Below are positions 2,580 through 39,675 of a stretch of DNA of 64,000 nucleotides, in pieces. The DNA comes from a virus. Lineage: Duplodnaviria; Caudoviricetes. Under the pieces are notes generated by a model, which ran no database searches, had not been told where the DNA came from, and saw only the letters and a program-made list of their open reading frames with translations. Each line of letters opens with the position of its first letter. The first letter of the stretch is position 1. Where the stretch lies: the IMG/VR virus record IMGVR_UViG_3300038825_000529, positions 1,539 through 65,538 of that record; one strand, 5' to 3'. Made by a program: the position numbers and the translations under genes.

Positions 2580-4460
2580 ATGCCTTTACAAAAGTTCCTT
2601 TTTAAACCTGGAATCAACAAAGAAGGAACAGCTTATTCAAACGAAGGTGGGTGGTTTGATTCTAATTTAGTTCGTTTTAGAAAAGGTCTTCCTGAAAAAA
2701 TAGGTGGATGGGCTAAATCTAGTTTAGATTCTTTTCAATCAACTGCTCGAGGATTACATGCATGGGTTGGTTTAGATGGTACTAAGTATTTAGGCGTAGG
2801 AACCACATGGAAGTATTATATTTTAGCAGGTACTTCTTATTACGATATAACTCCTATACGTTCCACCGATGAAAACGTTACAACGTTTTCAGCTACTAAT
2901 GGTAGTGCTGTTATAACAGCAACAGATACAGCTCATGGAGCTGTGGTTAATGATTTTGTAACTATTTCTAATGCGGTTTCTTTAGGTGGTAATATTACTG
3001 CTTCCGTTTTAAACCAAGAACATCAAATAACTTCTGTTCCTGATGTAAACACTTATACGTTTACCGCTTCTGCAACAGCAAACTCTAGTGATTCAGGTAA
3101 TGGTGGTAGTGCTACAGATGCTGCTTATCAATTAAATGTAGGTTTAGATGTTTATGTGCCTTCTTCTGGTTGGGGAGCGGGAACATGGGGAACAGGAACT
3201 TTCGGTTCTACTACCGCTCTTAGTTTTGCTAACCAGTTGAGATTATGGTCACACGATAATTTTGGTGAAGATTTAATACTTAATCCTAGGTTTGGTGGAG
3301 TATTTTATTGGGATCAATCAAATGGTTTGACTACTCGAGCAGTAGCTCTTTCAGATTTATCAGGAGCTGATCTTGCTCCTACAAAAGCATTACAAGTTAT
3401 GGTTTCTGATATTGATCGACATGTTATTTGTTTTGGTGCTGATCCTTTAAACACAGGAGGAACTGCTAGAACAGGGTCTATTGATCCTATGTTTATTGCG
3501 TGGAGTGATCAAGAAAACGCTGCTGTTTGGAATCCTTTAGCTACTAATACTGCAGGTTCTTTTAGATTATCTGCAGGTTCTTCTATTGTGGGGGCAACTA
3601 GAGCTAAACAAGAAATATTAGTTTGGACAGATACTTCTTTATATTCAATGTCTTTTATAGGACAGCCTTTTACATTCGGGTTAAATTTAGTTAATGAGGG
3701 AGTAGGTTTAGTTAGTCCTAATGCAATGGTAAATAGTCCTAAAGGTGTTTTTTGGATGGATAAAAAAGGTTTTTATGGATATAACGGAGCTGTTCAAGAA
3801 ATACCCTGTACCGTACAAGACTATGTTTTTAGTGATATAAATGAAGTTCAAGCTTATCAAATTTTTGGTTTTGTGAATAAAGCTTTCGATGAAGTCGGTT
3901 GGTTTTATTGTAGTGCTGACGCAACAGTTATTGATAAATATGTGGTATTTAATTATGAAGAAAACGTTTGGACTATAGGAACTTTATCAAGAACTGCTTG
4001 GATAGACGAAGGTATTTTTGATAATCCGAAAGCAACATCTTCATCGTCGGATGTAGGTTATTTATATAATCATGAAATAGGTAATGACAATGACGGTAAT
4101 CCTATGACTAATGTTTTTATAGAGTCAAGTGATTTTGATATTGATCCAGGAGGAGAAGATTTTCAATTCATTAGTAGAATTATTCCTGATATTAAATTTA
4201 CAGGAACAGGATCAACAGGAAGTGGCGGACAAAGTGTTAATGTTGTTTTAAAACGTAGGAATTTTCCAGGAGAAAGTTTAACAACAGCAGTAACAAGTAT
4301 TTGTGATTCAGCAACTACTAAAATAGATACAAGAGTTAGAGGCAGACAAGCAGTTTTACGCATAGAATCAGATGACGACGGAGCAACAGGAAGCACTGAA
4401 GGTGTTGGTTTTAGAGTTGGAGCTATGCGATTAAACTTTAGACCTGATGGCAGAAGGTAA
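2580..4460 (+). CDS. Tail nozzle/DNA-stabilisation virion protein (P22 gp10-like beta-propeller)
   Basis: 626 aa; FKPGINKE start, WSHDNFGEDL, IAWSDQE, FWMD, EVGWFY and RPDGRR end, typical of podovirus tail hub proteins; AGGAG RBS. Confidence 0.7.
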   Translation: MPLQKFLFKPGINKEGTAYSNEGGWFDSNLVRFRKGLPEKIGGWAKSSLDSFQSTARGLHAWVGLDGTKYLGVGTTWKYYILAGTSYYDITPIRSTDENVTTFSATNGSAVITATDTAHGAVVNDFVTISNAVSLGGNITASVLNQEHQITSVPDVNTYTFTASATANSSDSGNGGSATDAAYQLNVGLDVYVPSSGWGAGTWGTGTFGSTTALSFANQLRLWSHDNFGEDLILNPRFGGVFYWDQSNGLTTRAVALSDLSGADLAPTKALQVMVSDIDRHVICFGADPLNTGGTARTGSIDPMFIAWSDQENAAVWNPLATNTAGSFRLSAGSSIVGATRAKQEILVWTDTSLYSMSFIGQPFTFGLNLVNEGVGLVSPNAMVNSPKGVFWMDKKGFYGYNGAVQEIPCTVQDYVFSDINEVQAYQIFGFVNKAFDEVGWFYCSADATVIDKYVVFNYEENVWTIGTLSRTAWIDEGIFDNPKATSSSSDVGYLYNHEIGNDNDGNPMTNVFIESSDFDIDPGGEDFQFISRIIPDIKFTGTGSTGSGGQSVNVVLKRRNFPGESLTTAVTSICDSATTKIDTRVRGRQAVLRIESDDDGATGSTEGVGFRVGAMRLNFRPDGRR

Positions 4461-6237: not shown

Positions 6238-6238
6238 T

Positions 6239-6622
6239 ATGCAAAACGACGGTAGGTTTGGCGGGGATATGGATCGTAATGAAGTTGAGATGGATCTCAA
6301 CAAATTTATGGCGATGATACAAGAAATATCTGATCTTAAAGATAAAATAAGAGATTTAGAAGCTGATGATAAAATAAACCCACATCAAAAGTGGATTCAT
6401 TTAGCTAAAGCGGTAGATTCTTGGCGTATTTTCCCTAGAGCTTTTTTAACTGTTTATATTGTTTTATTGTATAAATGCACTATTTGGTTTATGGAACTTC
6501 CTGAACCTAGTTTTGAACAATCAGGTCTTATATCGATTGTTGTTGGTGCTGGTGCGGCTTGGTTTGGTTTATATGCGGGCACAACAGGTAGTAGTAAACA
6601 ATTTAAAGGTGAAGATTCTTGA
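6239..6622 (+). CDS. Two-TM membrane protein (holin-like)
   Basis: DSWRIFPRAFL..Y, WFM.L, QSGLISIVVGAGAAWFGLY; start moved to ATG 6239. Confidence 0.65.
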   Translation: MQNDGRFGGDMDRNEVEMDLNKFMAMIQEISDLKDKIRDLEADDKINPHQKWIHLAKAVDSWRIFPRAFLTVYIVLLYKCTIWFMELPEPSFEQSGLISIVVGAGAAWFGLYAGTTGSSKQFKGEDS

Positions 6623-7740
6623 ATAAAAAAGAAGAAGAACAACACGATAAGGTTTTTTCGTGGGCGGCAGTTTTCTTTCTAATAACGATAGTTATTGGTT
6701 TATCTGTTAATATAAATGCACAATCTAGTCAACAATCAGGAACAGCTTGTGTAAATGGTTCTCAGTATTGTGAAAATAATAGTTTAGATACTACTAATAC
6801 AACGACGACGACCAACACTAATACAAACACCAATACAAATACTAACACCAACACCAACACGAACAACAACACCAACGTTAATACTAATACAACGACGAGC
6901 ACAGCAACGAATACGAATTCAAACACTAATGTCAACACCAACACGAACAATAATATCAACACATCGACAGCAACTTCGACTTCGAACAACACCAATACAA
7001 ACAATAACGTTAATACTTCGACTTCTAATTCAACAGTAAATTCGACTGTTAATCAAAACGTTAATAACACAAATAATTCGACTTCAACATCGAACAACAC
7101 TAATACCAACACTAACGTAAATCAATCAACTTCAGATTCAAACGTTACAACAGATAATCGAAACGTAAACGAAAATAATTCAAGATCTGATAACACCAAT
7201 AGAAACATAAATGAATCAAACAGCACTCAAACGATTAATCAAAACGTAAAAAGTGAAGCACCTCCTGCGTCTGCGATAGCTCCTAGTATCATGTCTTACT
7301 CACAAGACCTCTGTACAACAGGTGTCTCAGGAGCTTTTCAAGGACAGGTGTTTGGTTTATCTGGTGGTAAAACTATTGTTGATGAAAACTGTGAAAGGTT
7401 AAAACTATCTAAGTATCTATACGATATGGGAATGAAAGTAGCCTCAGTTGCATTGCTTTGTCAAGACAAAAGAGTATTTAAGGCTATGTCAATGGCGGGT
7501 ACACCTTGTCCGTATAACGGTAAAATTGGTAAAGAAGCTACGGTGGCTTGGGAAGAAAACCCGCAAAAAAGACCTGATAAAGATGACGCTTTAGAAGATT
7601 ATATTGCTCAATGTACACATGAAGCTAACCCCAACAGAGACAAGATTAATAAAGATGTTGTAGGTTTAGTTAAAAAAACTTATACACGGAAAACTAAAAC
7701 AGCTAAACAATGCAAAAAAGAGTTTTATTCTACGCATTAG
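6619..7740 (+). CDS. Secreted Thr/Asn-rich low-complexity protein with Cys-containing C-terminal domain
   Basis: N-terminal signal/TM helix; about 150 aa of TN/SN repeats; PPASAIAP..CTTG..CERLK..C..GTPCP domain. TTG start. Confidence 0.7.
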   Translation: MNKKEEEQHDKVFSWAAVFFLITIVIGLSVNINAQSSQQSGTACVNGSQYCENNSLDTTNTTTTTNTNTNTNTNTNTNTNTNNNTNVNTNTTTSTATNTNSNTNVNTNTNNNINTSTATSTSNNTNTNNNVNTSTSNSTVNSTVNQNVNNTNNSTSTSNNTNTNTNVNQSTSDSNVTTDNRNVNENNSRSDNTNRNINESNSTQTINQNVKSEAPPASAIAPSIMSYSQDLCTTGVSGAFQGQVFGLSGGKTIVDENCERLKLSKYLYDMGMKVASVALLCQDKRVFKAMSMAGTPCPYNGKIGKEATVAWEENPQKRPDKDDALEDYIAQCTHEANPNRDKINKDVVGLVKKTYTRKTKTAKQCKKEFYSTH

Positions 7741-20928: not shown

Positions 20929-20957
20929 ATTCTTTCTAATTTCTAGTTCCCATTATA

Positions 20958-21156
20958 TATTACAATTTACTTATAAAAAGCCCCAAACTAAAAAGTTTTC
21001 TCATGCCCTCTAATAGAATTAGTAGTTTCTAATAGATTGAATCGTACAATCTAATAGACTGTAACACTCTTAAACACTGGCTTTGTTTAAAAATCTATTA
21101 GATTATTACCGATATTAGTAGTTTTCGAAAAGTTTTTCCTATAAACTTTTTTATTC
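20958..21156. repeat. Left arm of a ~200-bp degenerate inverted repeat with CTAATAG iterons
   Basis: Blocks 20994-21012, 21023-21036 and 21092-21120 match the reverse complement of 42958-42976, 42931-42944 and 42839-42867. Confidence 0.85.
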
Positions 21157-21178
21157 TTAAAACTACTATATAACTAAT

Positions 21179-21241
21179 AGCTTTACTTTGTCGGTATTGC
21201 TAGATATTATTTAAGTTCTAGAAATAAGAAAGGAGAAAAAA
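21179..21241 (+). promoter_or_regulatory. Phage promoter (GCTTTACTT class) plus AGAAAGGAG RBS
   Basis: TTTACT 21182-87, 17 bp spacer, TATTAT 21205-10. Confidence 0.7.
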
Positions 21242-29067: not shown

Positions 29068-30155
29068 AAGTAATTAATGCAAGAAACGTAAACGACGCGT
29101 TAGAAAAAGGTATAGATTTATTTCAAGACCCTACTGAATATAGAGTACAGGAAAGTCGTAATGGTATAACGTATGAAGCTAAGACACCTGTAGCTACCGT
29201 ATACAAAAAACCTTGGGAAAGAGTTTGTTTAATAAAACAAAGAGACGCTAATCCATTTTTTCATTTTATAGAAGGGTTATGGATGCTCGATGGTCGTAAC
29301 GACTTAGAACCACTAACTTATTTTGTTAAATCGATGTTTGATTTTTCAGACGACGGTGAAACTTTATGGGGAGCTTATGGTTGGAGATGGAGAAGTTATT
29401 TTAAGAAAGATCAAATAGCTGCAATTATCGGTTTGTTAAAAGAAAACCCTTACGAAAGACGAGCAGTTCTACAGATGTGGGATCCTAAGGACGATTTAGC
29501 GAGAACTTGTAATAAAAAAGTTGAAAGAAAAGACGTACCTTGTAATACGAATATTTATTTTAAAGTACGTGATGGTAAGTTATGCATGACTGTTTGTAAT
29601 CGTTCTAACGATATGCTTTGGGGAGCTTATGGTGCTAACGCAGTTCATATGTCTATGTTGCAAGAGTTCGTAGCTCTTAATCTAAATTTACCGATGGGTG
29701 ATTATACTCAAATTAGTGATAGTTTTCATATTTATCCAAACACTCCTGTGTGGGAAAAAGTTAAAGATATTGAATTAAATGTATACACCTATAAACATAT
29801 ACAAAATCATTACGATCTTATCGATGAATATGAGCCTGTACCTATTGTTAATGACCTTATTTCTTTTAACAGAGAAGTCAGGTTCTTCTTCGATTATTTT
29901 GAAACTTTTAGATATAATCCAAAAGAAATGCTAAAAAGAACAGATGATATCGAATGGGATAATAATATTTTTCCAGACGTAGCAGTGCCTATGTTAAAAG
30001 CATTTCATTATCATAAAGAAAGAGATTATTTGAATTCGTATCGAGAAGTACAGTCTATTAAGTCTCTCGATTGGATGGAGGCGTGTTTTGAGTGGATCCG
30101 CAAACGAGACACCGCCTATACTTTAAACAATGCGGATATAGGAGAAAGCAAATGA
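29064..30155 (+). CDS. Thymidylate synthase-fold enzyme, likely dUMP hydroxymethylase
   Basis: SRNG, RDANPFF...E.LWML.GRND, GAYG.RWR, DVPCN catalytic Cys and RSNDMLWGAYGAN; Asn at the dUMP/dCMP specificity position. Confidence 0.82.
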   Translation: MKVINARNVNDALEKGIDLFQDPTEYRVQESRNGITYEAKTPVATVYKKPWERVCLIKQRDANPFFHFIEGLWMLDGRNDLEPLTYFVKSMFDFSDDGETLWGAYGWRWRSYFKKDQIAAIIGLLKENPYERRAVLQMWDPKDDLARTCNKKVERKDVPCNTNIYFKVRDGKLCMTVCNRSNDMLWGAYGANAVHMSMLQEFVALNLNLPMGDYTQISDSFHIYPNTPVWEKVKDIELNVYTYKHIQNHYDLIDEYEPVPIVNDLISFNREVRFFFDYFETFRYNPKEMLKRTDDIEWDNNIFPDVAVPMLKAFHYHKERDYLNSYREVQSIKSLDWMEACFEWIRKRDTAYTLNNADIGESK

Positions 30156-30499
30156 GCAAATGGGAAAACATGAAAGAAGTTGCCCAAAACGATCTTGAAG
30201 CTCTTAAACGAGCAGAGACTTCGTACGGTGATTCTTGGAGACGTCGTGGAGGTGTTGGTGCCTTTATGATGTTAGCACGTAAGTTCGATCGTATAGAACA
30301 CCAGTCTGAAAAGCACGGGTGGGATATCTTCGAAGCAGGTGAAGTCTACAAAGGCGAAGCAGGTTTACTCGATGATATTCGAGACTTACGTAGATATTTA
30401 TTATTAGTTGAAGAATACATTTTAGCTAATACTAATCAAGTTAGCGTTGAAGCTGACGATGTTAATTATGCCGCAGAAGATGGCAAGGAGGATTATTAA
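30152..30499 (+). CDS. Nucleotide-modification-associated all-alpha protein (Nmad1/DUF1599-like)
   Basis: YGDSW, KFDRI and DDIRDLRRYLLL pattern; follows the TS-like gene; start moved to 30152. Confidence 0.6.
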   Translation: MSKWENMKEVAQNDLEALKRAETSYGDSWRRRGGVGAFMMLARKFDRIEHQSEKHGWDIFEAGEVYKGEAGLLDDIRDLRRYLLLVEEYILANTNQVSVEADDVNYAAEDGKEDY

Positions 30500-34145: not shown

Positions 34146-34227
34146 TTTTCGTACCTATAATGATAAAAGTAGCTAATAGGCTACGTGATTAACCAGTGCA
34201 GCCATGCACATTAGAAAGGAGAAAATT
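34130..34227 (+). promoter_or_regulatory. Phage promoter, two leader hairpins and RBS
   Basis: TTTACT-17-TATAAT; GTAGC/GCTAC and GTGCA/TGCAC hairpins; AGAAAGGAG. Confidence 0.75.
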
Positions 34228-35262
34228 ATGGCACACCAAGTAGAAACGATGGCTTGGACGGGGGATGTACCTTGGCACGGATTAGGTGTCGAGGTTGATT
34301 CTAACCTTAAACCATCTGAAATGCAGAAAGCGGCTCAGTTAGACTGGACAGTTAGCAAACGTCCTAGTTATACTATAGACGCTCCTGAGTGGAGTGACGA
34401 TGTTGGTCTTATCCAAGCGGAAAATACCTTCCACGTTGTTCGAGATAGCGATAACCGAATACTATCGCATTGTGGTAGAGACTATGTCCCTATACAGAAT
34501 GAAGACGTATTCAAATTCTTTAAACGCTTTACGGATGCTGGTCATATGACCATGGAAACCGCAGGTAGTTTGAAAGACGGTGGAGAAATTTGGGGTTTAG
34601 CTAAAATCTCAGAAGACTTCGAACTAGCGGGTGACGACCTTATTAAAGGTTATTTGCTTATCAACCAACCACATATCGTTGGTCGAGCAATGACTATTAA
34701 GTTGACACCTATCAGAGTTGTTTGCAACAACACTTTAACGATGGCTTTACAACACGGTGGCACAGCGTCCTTCCGTATGCCACACGTTAAAGCATTCGAT
34801 GACGATGTTATACAGATCGCAGAAGAAGCTCTAGGGCTATCTGCTGAACGTATGACAGAGTTTAGAGAAGCTGCAAACTTACTCTCTAAGAAGAAAGCTA
34901 AACATTCTCAGTTTCTTGAGTTTGTAGGTGATATTTATCAACCTGATATGATTGCTGCTTATAGACACGACCAACAGCTCAAAGCTGAAGGTAAGTTGAT
35001 AGGTATGCAAGAACCTCTTGTTGAGAAATTTAACAAGTTTCCACTTCTTGCTGTCGATGCTCTAGAACAGTCTCCAGGTGCAAACCTGAAGTCTGCTAAA
35101 GGTACGTGGTGGGGAGCATTGAATGCTGTCACCTACGTTGAAGACCATTTACGTGAGTCTGTAACCGAAGGCAACGCTTTACATAGTTCATGGTTTGGTG
35201 CTGCGGCTAATCGTAAAGCTAAAGCCTTAGATTTAGCTGTGAAATATGCGGAGGCTGCATAA
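34228..35262 (+). CDS. DUF932 family protein (phage/plasmid-like)
   Basis: MAHQVETMA...PWHGLG, ETAGSL..G..IW.LA, TPIRVVCNNTL and GTWWGALNAVT motifs. Confidence 0.88.
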   Translation: MAHQVETMAWTGDVPWHGLGVEVDSNLKPSEMQKAAQLDWTVSKRPSYTIDAPEWSDDVGLIQAENTFHVVRDSDNRILSHCGRDYVPIQNEDVFKFFKRFTDAGHMTMETAGSLKDGGEIWGLAKISEDFELAGDDLIKGYLLINQPHIVGRAMTIKLTPIRVVCNNTLTMALQHGGTASFRMPHVKAFDDDVIQIAEEALGLSAERMTEFREAANLLSKKKAKHSQFLEFVGDIYQPDMIAAYRHDQQLKAEGKLIGMQEPLVEKFNKFPLLAVDALEQSPGANLKSAKGTWWGALNAVTYVEDHLRESVTEGNALHSSWFGAAANRKAKALDLAVKYAEAA

Positions 35263-36304: not shown

Positions 36305-36508
36305 ATGGAAATAGAAATAACTAAACAAAACGGATTAACGTTTAAAACCAACGTAGCAGTTTTAGCACGACACGTAATACACGCAATGTTAAAAGATCCG
36401 TTTATTGAAATTAAAAACGAGGATGCTGAGCTTTTTGAAAAAGCAGTACATAACGTTATGTATGAAGCAATCGATAATCTTATAGGGGAAAAAGATGGCA
36501 CAAGTTAA
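36305..36508 (+). CDS. Hypothetical protein
   Basis: 67-aa ORF with AGGGG RBS. Confidence 0.6.
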   Translation: MEIEITKQNGLTFKTNVAVLARHVIHAMLKDPFIEIKNEDAELFEKAVHNVMYEAIDNLIGEKDGTS

Positions 36509-36812
36509 ATATGCAACGGTTGAGATATTAGAAACTCTTACACAAAAAGCCGAAGATTCTGGCAAAAACAGATACCCTGACGTAGGGATTGTTAACGGAG
36601 CTTTACTCGAATTAGGCTACGATTTAGAAGAAGTCAAACTTCCGATTACTTACACTTTAGATCATAACGATGTAGAAGTTAGAGCTATGTTTGTAATTCC
36701 AGGACCTGATCCAGAAGCAAACGAGCGATTCTTTTTAGATATGGAATACGAAGATTATAACAATCTACCTTATGTCGATTTACCCAACAATATTCTGTCA
36801 GACGAATTATGA
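36495..36812 (+). CDS. Hypothetical acidic protein
   Basis: 105-aa ORF in the operon. Confidence 0.6.
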   Translation: MAQVKYATVEILETLTQKAEDSGKNRYPDVGIVNGALLELGYDLEEVKLPITYTLDHNDVEVRAMFVIPGPDPEANERFFLDMEYEDYNNLPYVDLPNNILSDEL

Positions 36813-37021
36813 TTTATCGATTATTAACAGTATTTATCATTACAGGCTGTGCGGCATACGTTCCAGAAACTAAGGAATGGAACGATCGATATGATCCTGC
36901 GGCTTGGCGTAAACAGTTTGAAGAATGTCGGGATAAGTTGTATACAACCTATCCTGAAGAAGTTAACCAAGACCAATGGTCAAAATGTATGGAAATAGAT
37001 TATGAACTTAAAGAAAGCTAA
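36809..37021 (+). CDS. Small lipoprotein
   Basis: MIYRLLTVFIITGC lipobox-like signal; two further Cys residues. Confidence 0.6.
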   Translation: MIYRLLTVFIITGCAAYVPETKEWNDRYDPAAWRKQFEECRDKLYTTYPEEVNQDQWSKCMEIDYELKES

Positions 37022-37190
37022 ATTATTACGCAAAGTTTTAGCAACAGGTGGAGCTGATTGGCGAGACGCTAAACACGTACAAACAAAAGATCGGTTTGGT
37101 ACTTTACTACCTACGATCTTTTTAGATCCTAAATGCGGTCGTGCAATATATCGAAAAACAAAAACTATGGCACGAATGCGGGGGTCTTAG
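37002..37190 (+). CDS. Small basic protein
   Basis: MNLKKAKLLRK...CGRAIYRKTK pattern. Confidence 0.6.
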   Translation: MNLKKAKLLRKVLATGGADWRDAKHVQTKDRFGTLLPTIFLDPKCGRAIYRKTKTMARMRGS

Positions 37191-37193
37191 TAG

Positions 37194-37226
37194 TGCTTTA
37201 CTTTGCTAACTTTCGTACTTTATACT
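37194..37226 (+). promoter_or_regulatory. Phage promoter (TGCTTTACTT class)
   Basis: TTTACT 37197-202 and TATACT 37221-26. Confidence 0.7.
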
Positions 37227-37248
37227 ATAAGTATGTTTACTAGAACAA

Positions 37249-37522
37249 GTTTGATAAGTCCAGAGAGATTCATATGATTACTCCATTAAATAATGATACC
37301 GAGCGGAGTTTTTTAGTTAGACCGCTCACCTCTCTGGCTCAAAACCGTGGTGATGTCCCGATCCTTGTAAAAGCCTGTACTTTCGAGTCGGTTAGGATGA
37401 ACGGAGGTATATGCGGAAACCGAGATCCTCTCATCACCACACTTTTTTACTCTCCAGCACCAAGAGCGGGAGTCTAAATATGAATTTGGTGATAGATGGC
37501 GGTCTATCACAAAACACCGCCA
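37249..37522 (+). ncRNA. Putative multi-domain structured RNA with 3' pseudoknot
   Basis: Helices CCAGAGAG/CTCTCTGG, GAGCGG/CCGCTC, GTGGTGATG/CATCACCAC, ATCCT/AGGAT, ACT-TTCG-AGT and GTGATAGA/TCTATCAC with loop TGGCGG pairing CCGCCA; directly downstream of a promoter. Confidence 0.65.
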
Positions 37523-37551
37523 ACAGTTTATTAATAAGAAAGGAGAAATAG

Positions 37552-37806
37552 ATGGAAAAGAATGAAATACTACAAATGATCGATACGCTTACACAAAGCC
37601 TCGATTTATTAGTACAAACGCAACGCTCGACACAAGAGTTTATGCAAACACAACTCGATGTGAATAATATGTTGATACAACGTATTAAAAAACTCGAAGT
37701 CGAAGCTAACGTGATCAAAACAAAAGAACCTGTTGCGATTAACGATATTTTCGATACGATGATTAACCGTTTCAAAAAAGAAGGTGAAGATGCCACGAAA
37801 AGCTAA
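37552..37806 (+). CDS. Coiled-coil hypothetical protein
   Basis: AGAAAGGAG RBS; heptad pattern. Confidence 0.7.
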   Translation: MEKNEILQMIDTLTQSLDLLVQTQRSTQEFMQTQLDVNNMLIQRIKKLEVEANVIKTKEPVAINDIFDTMINRFKKEGEDATKS

Positions 37807-38038
37807 ACCCAAGTTTGATTTAAACCCTATAGAACGAGCTGTTGCGACGATCGCTATTGCTTTAGAGCCTTATATAGCTGATCAAACGTCTGAAGAATAT
37901 TTAGCACGTATGGATCGTAATAGAGTCGAAAGGGGTATAGCATTATTATTTGATACATTAGAAGCCGATGACGTTATCGATTATGAAAAAATAACCGATG
38001 CTATGTTAGAAGGTTTCGATTATAAGGAGGACTTATGA
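37790..38038 (+). CDS. Hypothetical protein
   Basis: MPRKAKPKF start; AGGTG RBS. Confidence 0.6.
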   Translation: MPRKAKPKFDLNPIERAVATIAIALEPYIADQTSEEYLARMDRNRVERGIALLFDTLEADDVIDYEKITDAMLEGFDYKEDL

Positions 38039-38208
38039 CACAACATAAGGCAGTCGTTGAGCAACAACGCAAAAAACTTGCACAAGAGGAAGATAATAAC
38101 AAATTACTTTCATATTATTATCAAAAAAGTCCAACAACCCATTATCGCGAACTTAAATATAAAAGCGGTCGCGTGGTTACAACAGATTTGAGTGGCAAAG
38201 ATGAATAG
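38035..38208 (+). CDS. Hypothetical protein (57 aa)
   Basis: AGGAGG RBS, ATGA overlap; MTQHKAVVEQQRKK...KYKSGRVV. Below the ORF-track cutoff. Confidence 0.6.
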   Translation: MTQHKAVVEQQRKKLAQEEDNNKLLSYYYQKSPTTHYRELKYKSGRVVTTDLSGKDE

Positions 38209-38329
38209 AGTAATTATAGAATTAGAATTTAACGATAATCCAACAAATGAAGATGTTTACAATTACCTAAAGGAATTAATGGACAACGACTGTTTGGGTT
38301 ATGAAATTAAGAAGAATGAAAATGAGTGA
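38201..38329 (+). CDS. Hypothetical protein (42 aa)
   Basis: MNRVIIELEFNDNPTNEDVYNYLKELMDNDCLGYE; fills the gap between overlapping neighbours. Confidence 0.5.
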   Translation: MNRVIIELEFNDNPTNEDVYNYLKELMDNDCLGYEIKKNENE

Positions 38330-38567
38330 TTTTAATATGATGGGTGCTGTAGGCTATAGGATCTCACATACGGACGAATCACAAGATTATCCGATTGCTA
38401 CCATTAAAATAGCATTTAAGCTTCCTGAGGGCGAAAACGGTCGAATCGAGATGTTTCACGTTCATGAAGCTTTACGCAGGATGATCGATAAAAAACAAAT
38501 AGCTTTTGATTTAACTTTACCACCTACCGAACCACCTAAAATTTGGAGTAATAATGAAAGTAATTAA
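38322..38567 (+). CDS. Hypothetical protein
   Basis: ORF-track 38301..38567 with the start adjusted. Confidence 0.55.
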   Translation: MSDFNMMGAVGYRISHTDESQDYPIATIKIAFKLPEGENGRIEMFHVHEALRRMIDKKQIAFDLTLPPTEPPKIWSNNESN

Positions 38568-38859
38568 TGATATCGTTGATTGGGCGGAGGTACGCGGACT
38601 AATTTACGGACAAGATATACAACCTGAAAAACAGATGTTGAAACTTGTAGAAGAAGTCGGTGAGACAGCTCGAGCACTCGCCTACGATGATGCACCTGGA
38701 TTGAAAGACGGGATAGGGGATTGTGTTGTTTGTTTGATCGTTTTAGCCGAACAAAAAGGTTTAACGCTCGAGGAGTGCATGCAAGCCGCTTACGATGAGA
38801 TATCTGGTCGTACAGGTCGATTAGAAAACGGTTTATGGAAGAAACAAGAAGACCTCTAG
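38554..38859 (+). CDS. MazG-like all-alpha NTP pyrophosphohydrolase
   Basis: WA..RG, KQMLKLVEEVGE, DGIGD..V.LI and AY.EI..R.G motifs. Confidence 0.85.
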   Translation: MKVINDIVDWAEVRGLIYGQDIQPEKQMLKLVEEVGETARALAYDDAPGLKDGIGDCVVCLIVLAEQKGLTLEECMQAAYDEISGRTGRLENGLWKKQEDL

Positions 38860-38959: not shown

Positions 38960-39307
38960 ATGGATATTGAAAAAATCCAACAACAGGTGGCTGACCTTAA
39001 AAACAATGTCAGTTTATTAGAACATGCTACAGTCAGCGAATTTAATTCAGACTTACTGACTTCATTACATCGTATTACCGATGTTTTAGATGATTTACAG
39101 CCTCGAGTAATCGATCCTGCTGATTTATCGAAAGAAGCCGAGCAAAAAGTACTTAACACATTATCCGAGTTAACTGCTCGTATCGATAATATAGAAGCTC
39201 GTGAGTACACTGAAGAAGGTATCGAAGATATCGCCAAAGGTGCTATTCAAAATATGGATTTCAGTGCCGAGTTAGACGACGGTAGTTTATCAGTGTGGGC
39301 AAGATGA
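38960..39307 (+). CDS. Acidic coiled-coil early protein
   Basis: Strong RBS; 115 aa. Confidence 0.7.
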   Translation: MDIEKIQQQVADLKNNVSLLEHATVSEFNSDLLTSLHRITDVLDDLQPRVIDPADLSKEAEQKVLNTLSELTARIDNIEAREYTEEGIEDIAKGAIQNMDFSAELDDGSLSVWAR

Positions 39308-39675
39308 TACACGGACTACTTATCGACCCGTTCGAGCAAATTGTTACCGAGGTAGAGTTGTCAGAAGACTCTACCTTTGCCGACGCTAAAAAACATATGC
39401 AACTTGATGGACCCCTCGACGTTGTTACATTAAGTGACGATACGATGGTCATAGTTGACGATGAAGGTTTATTAAAAAACAATAATCGATATTTCAAACT
39501 ATCAGAGTTCCATCAGCCGTTAGCAGGTCGTGCCATTATTGTTGGTTATGATGATGAGGGTGCGACTATTAGCGGTAATTATAATGCTGATACGATCGAG
39601 TGGATGCCTGAGGATCATGTCGAAGAACCTTTTATGCAATTTATACCGATTCCCGATGAGAAGGAGATGCACTGA
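39304..39675 (+). CDS. DUF3846-like protein
   Basis: LIDPF, IVDDEGLL and PLAGRAIIVG motifs. Confidence 0.7.
   Translation: MIHGLLIDPFEQIVTEVELSEDSTFADAKKHMQLDGPLDVVTLSDDTMVIVDDEGLLKNNNRYFKLSEFHQPLAGRAIIVGYDDEGATISGNYNADTIEWMPEDHVEEPFMQFIPIPDEKEMH

Follow-up and report, generated by a model that had tools for sequence, protein, structure and literature searches.

In the DNA analysed here, a 64-kb window (64,000 nucleotides, positions 1,539 to 65,538) of the IMG/VR virus record IMGVR_UViG_3300038825_000529, positions 37236-37551 probably form the non-coding, modular 5' leader of an early-type transcript, read from the plus strand, with modules that are accessory RNA elements. The comparison with related loci shows that this leader is non-coding, structured on the plus strand, modular and highly variable, and that it was inserted into an ancestrally short leader. 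It would be read from one of the repeated sigma-70-type promoters of the phage and is composed of a constant 5' domain (D1), a three-way-junction module (B), an optional module (D3) and a portable block containing the ribosome-binding site (RBS). Related phages swap modules, lose them and change their order, with short junctions common to the modules as the sites of recombination. A first-pass annotation of the same DNA had described a promoter-driven, multi-domain structured RNA of about 290 nucleotides (nt) in an otherwise gene-dense region. The gene-free stretch is indeed there, as a gap of 361 nt between two small genes, and so are separable plus-strand domains; the idea of a fixed architecture had to give way to that of a constant 5' domain followed by exchangeable modules.

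The modular character is apparent from the relatives. Searches with the flanking proteins led to 15 (downstream protein) and 24 (upstream protein) loci in viral contigs, and DNA patterns for domain 1 returned the same 15 viral contigs and 20 metagenome contigs. This set comprises 50 loci including the window and 27 distinct versions, which span 256-797 nt if one counts from the promoter block until a few bases beyond the start codon. One divergent locus, L094, was found separately by a scan with the portable RBS block; in all, the comparison covers 28 distinct versions from marine viromes and metagenomes. D1 stands first in all 27 arrays, a universality that is partly a matter of ascertainment as many loci were found through D1. 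A module framed by GUGG...CCAC is likewise present in 27/27 arrays (B in 19, E in five, F in three and G in four), and another nine types of module (c2, D3, H, K, c4, c5, c6, M and N) are optional. D3 occurs in four of the 27 arrays; its relatives are known from three metagenome loci only, and the D3 hairpin pattern gave no match in viral contigs. The modules are 57-124 nt long, occur in single copy per locus and follow each other in the order D1-B-D3 in the window, where B is the only framed module, and D1-c2-B-D3-G-c6-M-N in the longest array. They meet at short shared motifs, i.e., C(A/U)CAAAAC followed by GUGGUG ... CCACAC, a U-rich run and ACAG, and CACA is enriched (12 occurrences compared to 4.3 expected, p 0.002). 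For several modules, the copies in different arrays show 100% identity, while those of D1 and B diverge by as much as 12%. At the level of sequence comparison, complete identity would fit recent exchange or strong constraint alike. Module number, kind and order vary among phages with flanking proteins that are 73-100% identical. Positions 37000-37900 had no DNA match in GenBank phage records, and no description of the locus or its motifs was found in the literature searched, a search whose reach ended short of subscription journals and supplements.

Fourteen of the 24 loci retrieved via the upstream protein carry the RNA, three lie in other contexts and seven (L031-L036 and L038) are devoid of it. 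These seven share the same promoter, which is followed by a leader of about 35 nt and a positional homologue of the downstream gene, with weak similarity (32% identity over 50 amino acids, aa). The short leader of this more distant sister clade shows that the RNA was acquired in one clade only, where it was inserted between the promoter and the RBS. One member of the sister clade without leader RNA, L038, contains a long closed intergenic hairpin on its plus strand (3986-4070, GAUGAUAGUAGGA ... UCCUACUAUCAUC), and it may be that phages of this group often carry inserts of folded, non-coding sequence.

The promoter that had been noticed upstream of the leader, TTTACT-18-TATACT (37197-37226), matches the consensus in nine of 12 positions, and transcription would start near 37233-37236. 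Generic promoter-like sites in the region 36500-38500 are at chance level (6 compared to 6.7 ± 2.6 in shuffled sequences). The extended -35 block TGCTTTACTT, at no more than one mismatch, has 25 matches as compared to 9.1 ± 3.1 in shuffles, and none of 100 shuffles reaches 25. Ten of the 14 plus-strand matches precede a TATAxT-like -10 element, a strong RBS (AGAAAGGAGAAA) and a start codon; these ten copies, situated between 21 and 44 kb, share the layout TGCTTTACTT, about 17 nt, TATAxT. The remaining four (16123, 23429, 46151 and 49717) lie inside genes, lack -10 element and RBS, and were dropped. In L031-L036, L038 and L094, too, this block lies ahead of the homologous gene. The promoter is real, as part of a phage-specific family of the sigma-70 type, and the copy at 37194 is the only family member with a long leader, because the distance from block to start codon is 358 nt here and roughly 60-105 nt at the other nine promoters (one of which is ambiguous). 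A second promoter-like site (37251-37278) was discarded, as its -10 element overlaps an ATG that is not conserved.

Every helix of the three originally proposed domains is present in the sequence at its position (Table 1), and the helices of domains 1 and 2 keep pairing in the relatives through compensatory changes, most of which are contributed by L094. The three-way-junction model of B is 99.0% paired in 11 distinct close sequences. Among these close relatives, three paired positions vary, two of them between U-A and U.G and one between C-G and U.G, and the other columns with point variation are unpaired. In L027, the small P3 hairpin of B consists of a different sequence of the same length and has lost its three inner pairs. 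The interior of B as drawn by RNAalifold itself was rejected, as several of its pairs break in one or two of the 11 sequences. L094 has the promoter, the RBS block and the homologous gene in common with the close relatives, whereas its D1 is shortened, the third arm of its B-like module is enlarged and a small hairpin stands at the end. It is found by covariance models built from the close relatives, with 52 bits for B (E 2e-10) and 70 bits for D1 (E 9e-11). When L094 is included, the 27 pairs of B are formed in 98.5% of all cells and contain four compensatory doubles, a number reached in none of 500 shuffles (slid controls: 32-59% paired); for the 15 pairs of D1, 99.0% of cells are paired and there are again four compensatory doubles (0/500 shuffles; slid controls: 24-51% paired). 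The unpaired 5' segment UAGAACAAGUUUGAUAAGUCCAGAG is identical over 25 nt in this divergent locus and the P2 loop is mostly kept as well. The AT-rich interior of D1 (37268-37300, 33 nt) is deleted there and thus dispensable. On the minus strand, the U.G pairs that recur would turn into A.C mismatches, and it is therefore the plus strand that is the folded molecule.

The plus strand of 37235-37551 folds with -85.8 kcal/mol (z -3.00), a value matched by one of 100 dinucleotide shuffles and thus in line with the structured RNA initially claimed; on the minus strand, the z-score is -2.30 and two of 100 shuffles are equally good. The plus-strand z-scores of the individual domains are -1.71 for D1 (11/200 shuffles), -3.69 for B (0/200) and -1.66 for D3 (16/200). 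Energy alone singles out domain 2 (B) only, and the support for D1 is the comparison with relatives.

For domain 3, the first-pass annotation had proposed an H-type pseudoknot as the end of the RNA. The complementarity on which this was based exists, with 6-7 bp between the loop at 37497-502 and positions 37517-22, and the 8-bp hairpin 37489-96/37503-10 is invariant across the three D3 haplotypes (window, L058 and L064/L070). The first hairpin of D3 changes from U.G to C-G in L058, which fits an RNA helix. The pseudoknot itself would leave 0 nt in its first loop, and as a plain 7-bp hairpin, helix ii (-10.4 kcal/mol) is close to hairpin i (-9.7 kcal/mol, or -11.9 kcal/mol with a GGCG tetraloop). 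In the two other haplotypes, the central, facing G and C of helix ii have both been replaced such that a U.U opposition results and the energy drops from -10.4 to -6.7 kcal/mol; this is a notable coincidence of position, yet it is not compensation. Because of the zero-nt loop, the near-equal energies and the U.U variant, the pseudoknot is unproven and a pair of alternative hairpins is equally likely. A similar small hairpin (UGGNNG ... CNNCCA) can be seen by eye in L094 and in module N just upstream of the RBS block, which favours a second helix that is a simple terminal hairpin.

The first-pass annotation had recognised no core of a tRNA, tmRNA, hammerhead or riboswitch, and the RNA indeed matches no tRNA, tmRNA or Rfam 15 family. 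With Rfam 15 at gathering scores, no match was obtained in the whole window or in eight related loci. When matches with E-values up to 10 were admitted for 37100-37650, four chance-level hits appeared, with 10.6-22.4 bits compared to gathering scores of 39-80, and the E-value mode returned chance-level matches only for the L064 array and a locus with the E motif. ARAGORN reported neither tRNA nor tmRNA in the window and in ten related loci. Several regulator types were considered and rejected. GGA is not enriched in the modules (15 in 1161 nt compared to 17.4 ± 3.5 expected), as it would be in a sponge of the CsrA/CsrB/RsmZ type. When D1, B and D3 were paired with 97 translation-initiation regions, an admittedly crude duplex method, their best duplexes did not surpass those obtained with shuffled modules, and antisense action finds no support; the only complementarities found span 9-11 nt and are at chance level. 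By eye, the consensus core of the hammerhead ribozyme, CUGANGA/GAA, is not matched by UCCCG and GAAC, the strands at the junction of B.

Module E extends the picture beyond this locus. It is a three-helix motif of 57-58 nt with the core GGAUGRGRCUUAAAGGAACAAUCC, usually followed by a T-rich run; the window itself contains no E. A scan with the core shared by E and F retrieved 17 viral contigs, 13 of which (L077-L089) do not have D1, and a looser E/F pattern added only three chance matches inside genes. Closing stem and P2 of E covary (GUGGUG/CGCCAC, GAGGUG/CGCCUC, AAGGUG/CGCCUU). Across nine distinct E sequences, three helices are formed with compensatory doubles in five of 15 pairs, and the covariation score of 0.296, compared to 0.146 in shuffles, is attained by none of 500 shuffles. 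The P2 hairpins of E and F differ from each other at four of the five variable pairs, and pairing is retained. E belongs to no Rfam family and has no match in GenBank phage records at E-values up to 1; in the bacterial genome set, no exact copy of its core was found. Its locations are diverse: it can be flanked by a small acidic gene and a zinc-finger primase-like gene, can close a unit ahead of another promoter, or can lie downstream of a different promoter ahead of an orphan gene. One E-bearing phage has an SSB gene with 72% DNA identity to that of Pelagibacter phage HTVC115P. In the clade of L081, L082 and L088, a different structured leader of about 200 nt is followed by E and the same AGUUUAUUAAUAAGAAAGGAG RBS block, and the block here precedes unrelated genes, MazG-like or Cys-rich. 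On this comparison, the string of modules together with the RBS block looks portable. With regard to a possible riboswitch, whose aptamer would lie upstream of genes with a consistent function, B is known from one gene context only and E from unrelated ones (primase-like, MazG-like, orphans). The motif AGGAUGR is shared by B, E and F alone. For module c4 and its diverged copy, compensatory doubles were found in four of 18 pairs. Taken together, there are at least four uncatalogued RNA motifs with comparative support, D1, B, E and c4.

How would such modules work? They would work as RNA, either while part of the early transcript or from it, and binding or processing/attenuation signals are favoured; dedicated control of the 84-aa gene downstream and antisense regulation are not. 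We consider the modules accessory elements rather than a device dedicated to the 84-aa gene because the sister clade does without them, because their number and kind vary between near-identical phages, because whole modules are conserved as units and because E stands before unrelated genes. B together with U6 would end some transcripts as an RNA of about 210 nt (D1+B), and read-through would carry D3 and the 84-aa gene. As U6 lies two bases past B and 20 of 37 framed module ends in the 27 arrays have at least four T within 8 nt, some transcripts may end in this way, and U6 after B is possibly a leaky terminator. A terminator scan restricted to simple hairpins found none at the leader.

A number of points weigh against this preferred reading as a whole. 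Nearly all compensatory doubles in D1 and B stem from a single sequence, L094, in alignments that were fitted to the models. When L094 is left out, D1 retains one double in 20 sequences, attained via G.U intermediates and also reached by 59 of 500 shuffles (not significant), and B has none in its 11 close relatives, a divergence at which the shuffle control is uninformative. D1 and D3 are unremarkable by energy alone, and the energy of D1 is even better on the minus strand (z -4.13). The U-tract is not universal: 17 of the 37 ends have no run of four T and L094 does not have it, such that termination would be a tendency and not a conserved or defining property. Contigs from four metatranscriptome runs, possibly including DNA, cover the region just like its neighbours; one of them crosses the promoter, and contigs carry no information on ends, strand or level. 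Finally, the leader runs straight into the RBS, which also fits a purely cis-acting role.

Such a role, in which the leader would be a plain 5' untranslated region (UTR) and the modules would set stability, translation or read-through of the mRNA for the 84-aa gene, appears rather unlikely to us. It is in accordance with the position of the RNA between promoter and RBS, the lack of a conserved terminator and a small hairpin that may occupy the extreme 5' end, and also with modules that travel with the same RBS block before unrelated genes (L081, L082 and L088), as in cassettes of the promoter-early stem-loop (PeSL) type discussed below. However, the homologous gene of the sister clade works with a 35-nt leader, differences in module number, kind and order among phages with such similar flanking proteins would be odd for a dedicated regulator, and whole modules are kept at or near 100% identity. 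Moreover, no conserved pairing of modules with the RBS was found, and the pairing of U-tract and RBS in the minimum-energy fold is not conserved. The opposite notion, that the modules are released from the leader as trans-acting accessory RNAs that bind a host or phage factor, for example as decoy or sponge against a defence or RNA-binding protein, is just as hard to favour. Its strengths are presence, absence and order that vary like those of accessory genes amid small orphan early genes, whole-module conservation and conserved junction nucleotides that suit recognition of a fold, and the occurrence of E in unrelated phage lineages at different loci. On the other hand, the GGA count does not agree with a CsrB-like sponge, and similarity to tRNA, CRISPR repeats or any Rfam family is absent. 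One may go further and imagine an RNA cassette array that would correspond, in non-coding form, to the islands of accessory or anti-defence genes in phages, where a fixed promoter and 5' domain serve changeable self-contained modules (decoy, aptamer or catalytic RNA) directed against a factor of the host or a rival phage and traded among marine phages at the junction motifs, with E as the first widely distributed member; this is speculative, though a little less doubtful than either of the two foregoing ideas.

The two explanations that dispense with RNA function are far weaker. It is very improbable that the region acts as DNA, be it via origin, priming or recombination hairpins or attC-like sites, or that it consists of functionless scars of illegitimate recombination. 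The inverted repeats fold on the minus strand too, gain and loss at short shared junctions is cassette-like, and the phage encodes a primase and helicases; yet three helices of B, and likewise D1 and E, repeatedly show changes (U.G) that preserve pairing on the plus strand only, the elements sit directly behind a promoter in sense orientation, no iterons or repeats were found, each module is single-copy, and no integrase was noticed among the selection of proteins scanned. Scars would not keep compensatory changes or 100% identity. Least credible, to the point of being negligible, is a gene for a small protein, either open reading frame (ORF) 37274..37477 (67 aa) or ORF 37411..37551 (46 aa). 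Both are open in the window, with GAGAG ahead of ATG 37274 and GGAGG ahead of ATG 37411. ATG 37274, however, is kept in only 11 of 28 arrays and lost in 15 of the 26 that can be judged, two of the 28 being truncated there. Where the ATG is kept, the ORF encodes 27-87 aa with differing C-termini, length and C-terminus following the modules; close relatives have frame-breaking indels of -2, +1 and +4 nt within it, L094 has lost the whole start region, and the 67-aa product belongs to no Pfam family. Substitutions track helices and not codons, and the conservation that the first-pass annotation had named as an argument for a coding function does not follow the reading frame. The accessory RNA elements of a modular leader thus remain our preferred reading.

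Table 1. Features of the leader locus, its promoter family and related module-bearing loci (window coordinates unless a locus is given).
Feature	Position	Strand	Details
Gap	37191-37551	+	361 nt, between ORF 37002..37190 (62 aa) and ORF 37552..37806 (84 aa)
Promoter	37191..37226	+	extended -35 block TGCTTTACTT 37194-37203, hexamer TTTACT 37197-37202, -10 TATACT 37221-37226
Promoter family	21179, 26531, 33049, 34130, 35791, 37194, 38879, 41349, 41793, 43614	+	block positions of the ten copies
5' segment	37236..37259	+	UAGAACAAGUUUGAUAAGU..., conserved, mostly unpaired; (near-)invariant across 20 D1 variants
Domain 1	37260..37337	+	P1 + P2; whole D1 including 5' segment 37236-37337
D1 P1	37260-67 / 37330-37	+	CCAGAGAG / CTCTCTGG
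D1 P2	37301-06 / 37322-27	+	GAGCGG / CCGCTC, conserved loop UUUUUUAGUUAGA
Linker	37338..37346	+	CUCAAAACC; junction motif C(A/U)CAAAAC recurs between modules
Module B (earlier domain 2)	37347..37442	+	96-nt three-way junction, GUGG...CCAC closing frame
B P1	37347-55 / 37432-40	+	GTGGTGATG / CATCACCAC
B P2	37361-65 / 37394-98	+	ATCCT / AGGAT
Hairpin on B P2	37374-75 / 37390-91 and 37379-81 / 37386-88		ACT-TTCG-AGT 37379-88, UUCG loop
B P4	37403-07 / 37427-31	+	carries CGG-AAA-CCG 37414-22
U6 tract	37443..37448	+	T6, two bases past B closing stem
Module D3 (earlier domain 3)	37449..37524	+	optional
D3 first hairpin	37449-54 / 37468-73	+	ACUCUC / GGGAGU
D3 hairpin i	37489-96 / 37503-10		GTGATAGA / TCTATCAC; loop TGGCGG 37497-502; CCGCCA 37517-22
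D3 helix ii	37497-37503 / 37516-37522	+	competing or pseudoknot
Portable RBS block	37522..37551	+	AACAGUUUAUUAAUAAGAAAGGAGAAAUAG, Shine-Dalgarno sequence 37540-45, ahead of ATG 37552; kept in all arrays
Downstream gene	37552..37806	+	84 aa; without known family; 15 relatives in viral contigs
Module E, example	L078:7247-7304	-	
Module E, example	L079:5679-5735	-	
Module E, example	L085:3730-3787	+	
Leader with E and RBS block	L081:8653-8940	-	
Leader with E and RBS block	L082:4004-4500	-	adds diverged c4 and c6
Leader with E and RBS block	L088		

The source virus record has a size of 65.5 kb and is rated complete by CheckV. The window encodes, among other proteins, an SNF2-type helicase, an AEP primase, a UvrD-type helicase, a family A DNA polymerase and a terminase. 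Polymerase and terminase share 47-58% identity with proteins from two uncultured/unclassified phages and from Pelagibacter phages HTVC023P and HTVC027P. Judged by protein identities of about 50-58%, HTVC023P-type Pelagibacter phages appear to be the nearest cultured relatives. The gap with the leader is surrounded by small plus-strand genes in series. Nearby, positions 38554-38859 encode a MazG-like pyrophosphatase (PHROG 1992 at 3.9e-30; Pfam MazG), 34204-35262 a protein whose relatives in phage records carry a DUF932 annotation and 39295-39675 a DUF3846 protein; the remaining small genes near the RNA gave no family match except one borderline PHROG hit of unknown function. Elsewhere in the window, the divergent gap between the minus-strand gene for the SNF2-type helicase and plus-strand genes (20929-21241) has an unusually stable fold on either strand (z about -4.2 and -4.6 relative to 60 mononucleotide shuffles), which suggests palindromic DNA, perhaps a regulatory region or an origin. 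A further gap that seemed strongly folded (30156-30498, z -3.9) was rejected because it is coding (ORF 30092..30499). The 1.47 kb at 6238-7709 are without a long ORF in the gene map and contain two possible ORFs preceded by Shine-Dalgarno sequences (6239..6622 and 7348..7740) as well as two short minus-strand ORFs.

Accessory regions of phages are nearly always interpreted in terms of protein genes. In an abundant group of uncultured marine phages, the place behind an early-type promoter is occupied by folded RNAs whose behaviour resembles that of accessory genes, in that each is conserved as a unit, genomes exchange them and at least one occurs in several phage lineages. Should the modules act in trans, they would form a new class of accessory functions in phages and provide new RNA folds. 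Should their action be in cis, the idea of the mobile regulatory cassette would extend from simple stem-loops to multi-helix RNAs. In either case, D1, B, E and c4 are now testable RNA motifs.

Among known systems, integron arrays are a conceptual analogue only. They also combine one promoter with exchangeable units bounded by short junctions capable of forming hairpins; in the phage leader, however, the units are non-coding RNAs of 57-124 nt and not genes bearing attC sites, strand-specific wobble pairs point to RNA, and the selection of proteins that was scanned did not include an integrase. The c4 RNA of P1/P7 and the CI RNA of P4 are processed leader RNAs that pair with target sites downstream on the same transcript. 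They resemble the modules as small folded RNAs with a closing stem between promoter and first gene and with allelic variants, whereas no conserved downstream complementarity and no Rfam match were found for the leader studied here. Early leaders of lambdoid prophages carry strings of non-coding RNAs, an example being the dicF precursor of the dicB operon in Qin. Such leaders similarly consist of a gene-free stretch behind an early promoter with several folded RNAs ahead of the first gene and are the nearest in layout. They differ in that there is no relationship by sequence or Rfam family, in that the hosts are those of marine phages and not enterobacteria, in that a DicF-like terminator hairpin is absent, and in that variability in our case arises by swapping of whole modules within a conserved frame.

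The nearest described principle is found in T4-type phages, where PeSLs serve as mobile regulatory cassettes (Arbiol et al. 2010, PMC2839356). In both cases, a sigma-70-like phage promoter is repeated, small structured regulatory units reside in a variable region of non-essential small genes, and close relatives differ by recombination between short shared units (PMC2839356). The repeated strong promoter is present in our window in ten plus-strand copies between 21179 and 43614. A PeSL is one repeated promoter-plus-terminator unit that shuffles protein genes between its copies (PMC2839356). In the leader described here, a single promoter is followed by multi-helix RNA modules that are unlike one another, and shuffling affects these modules themselves.

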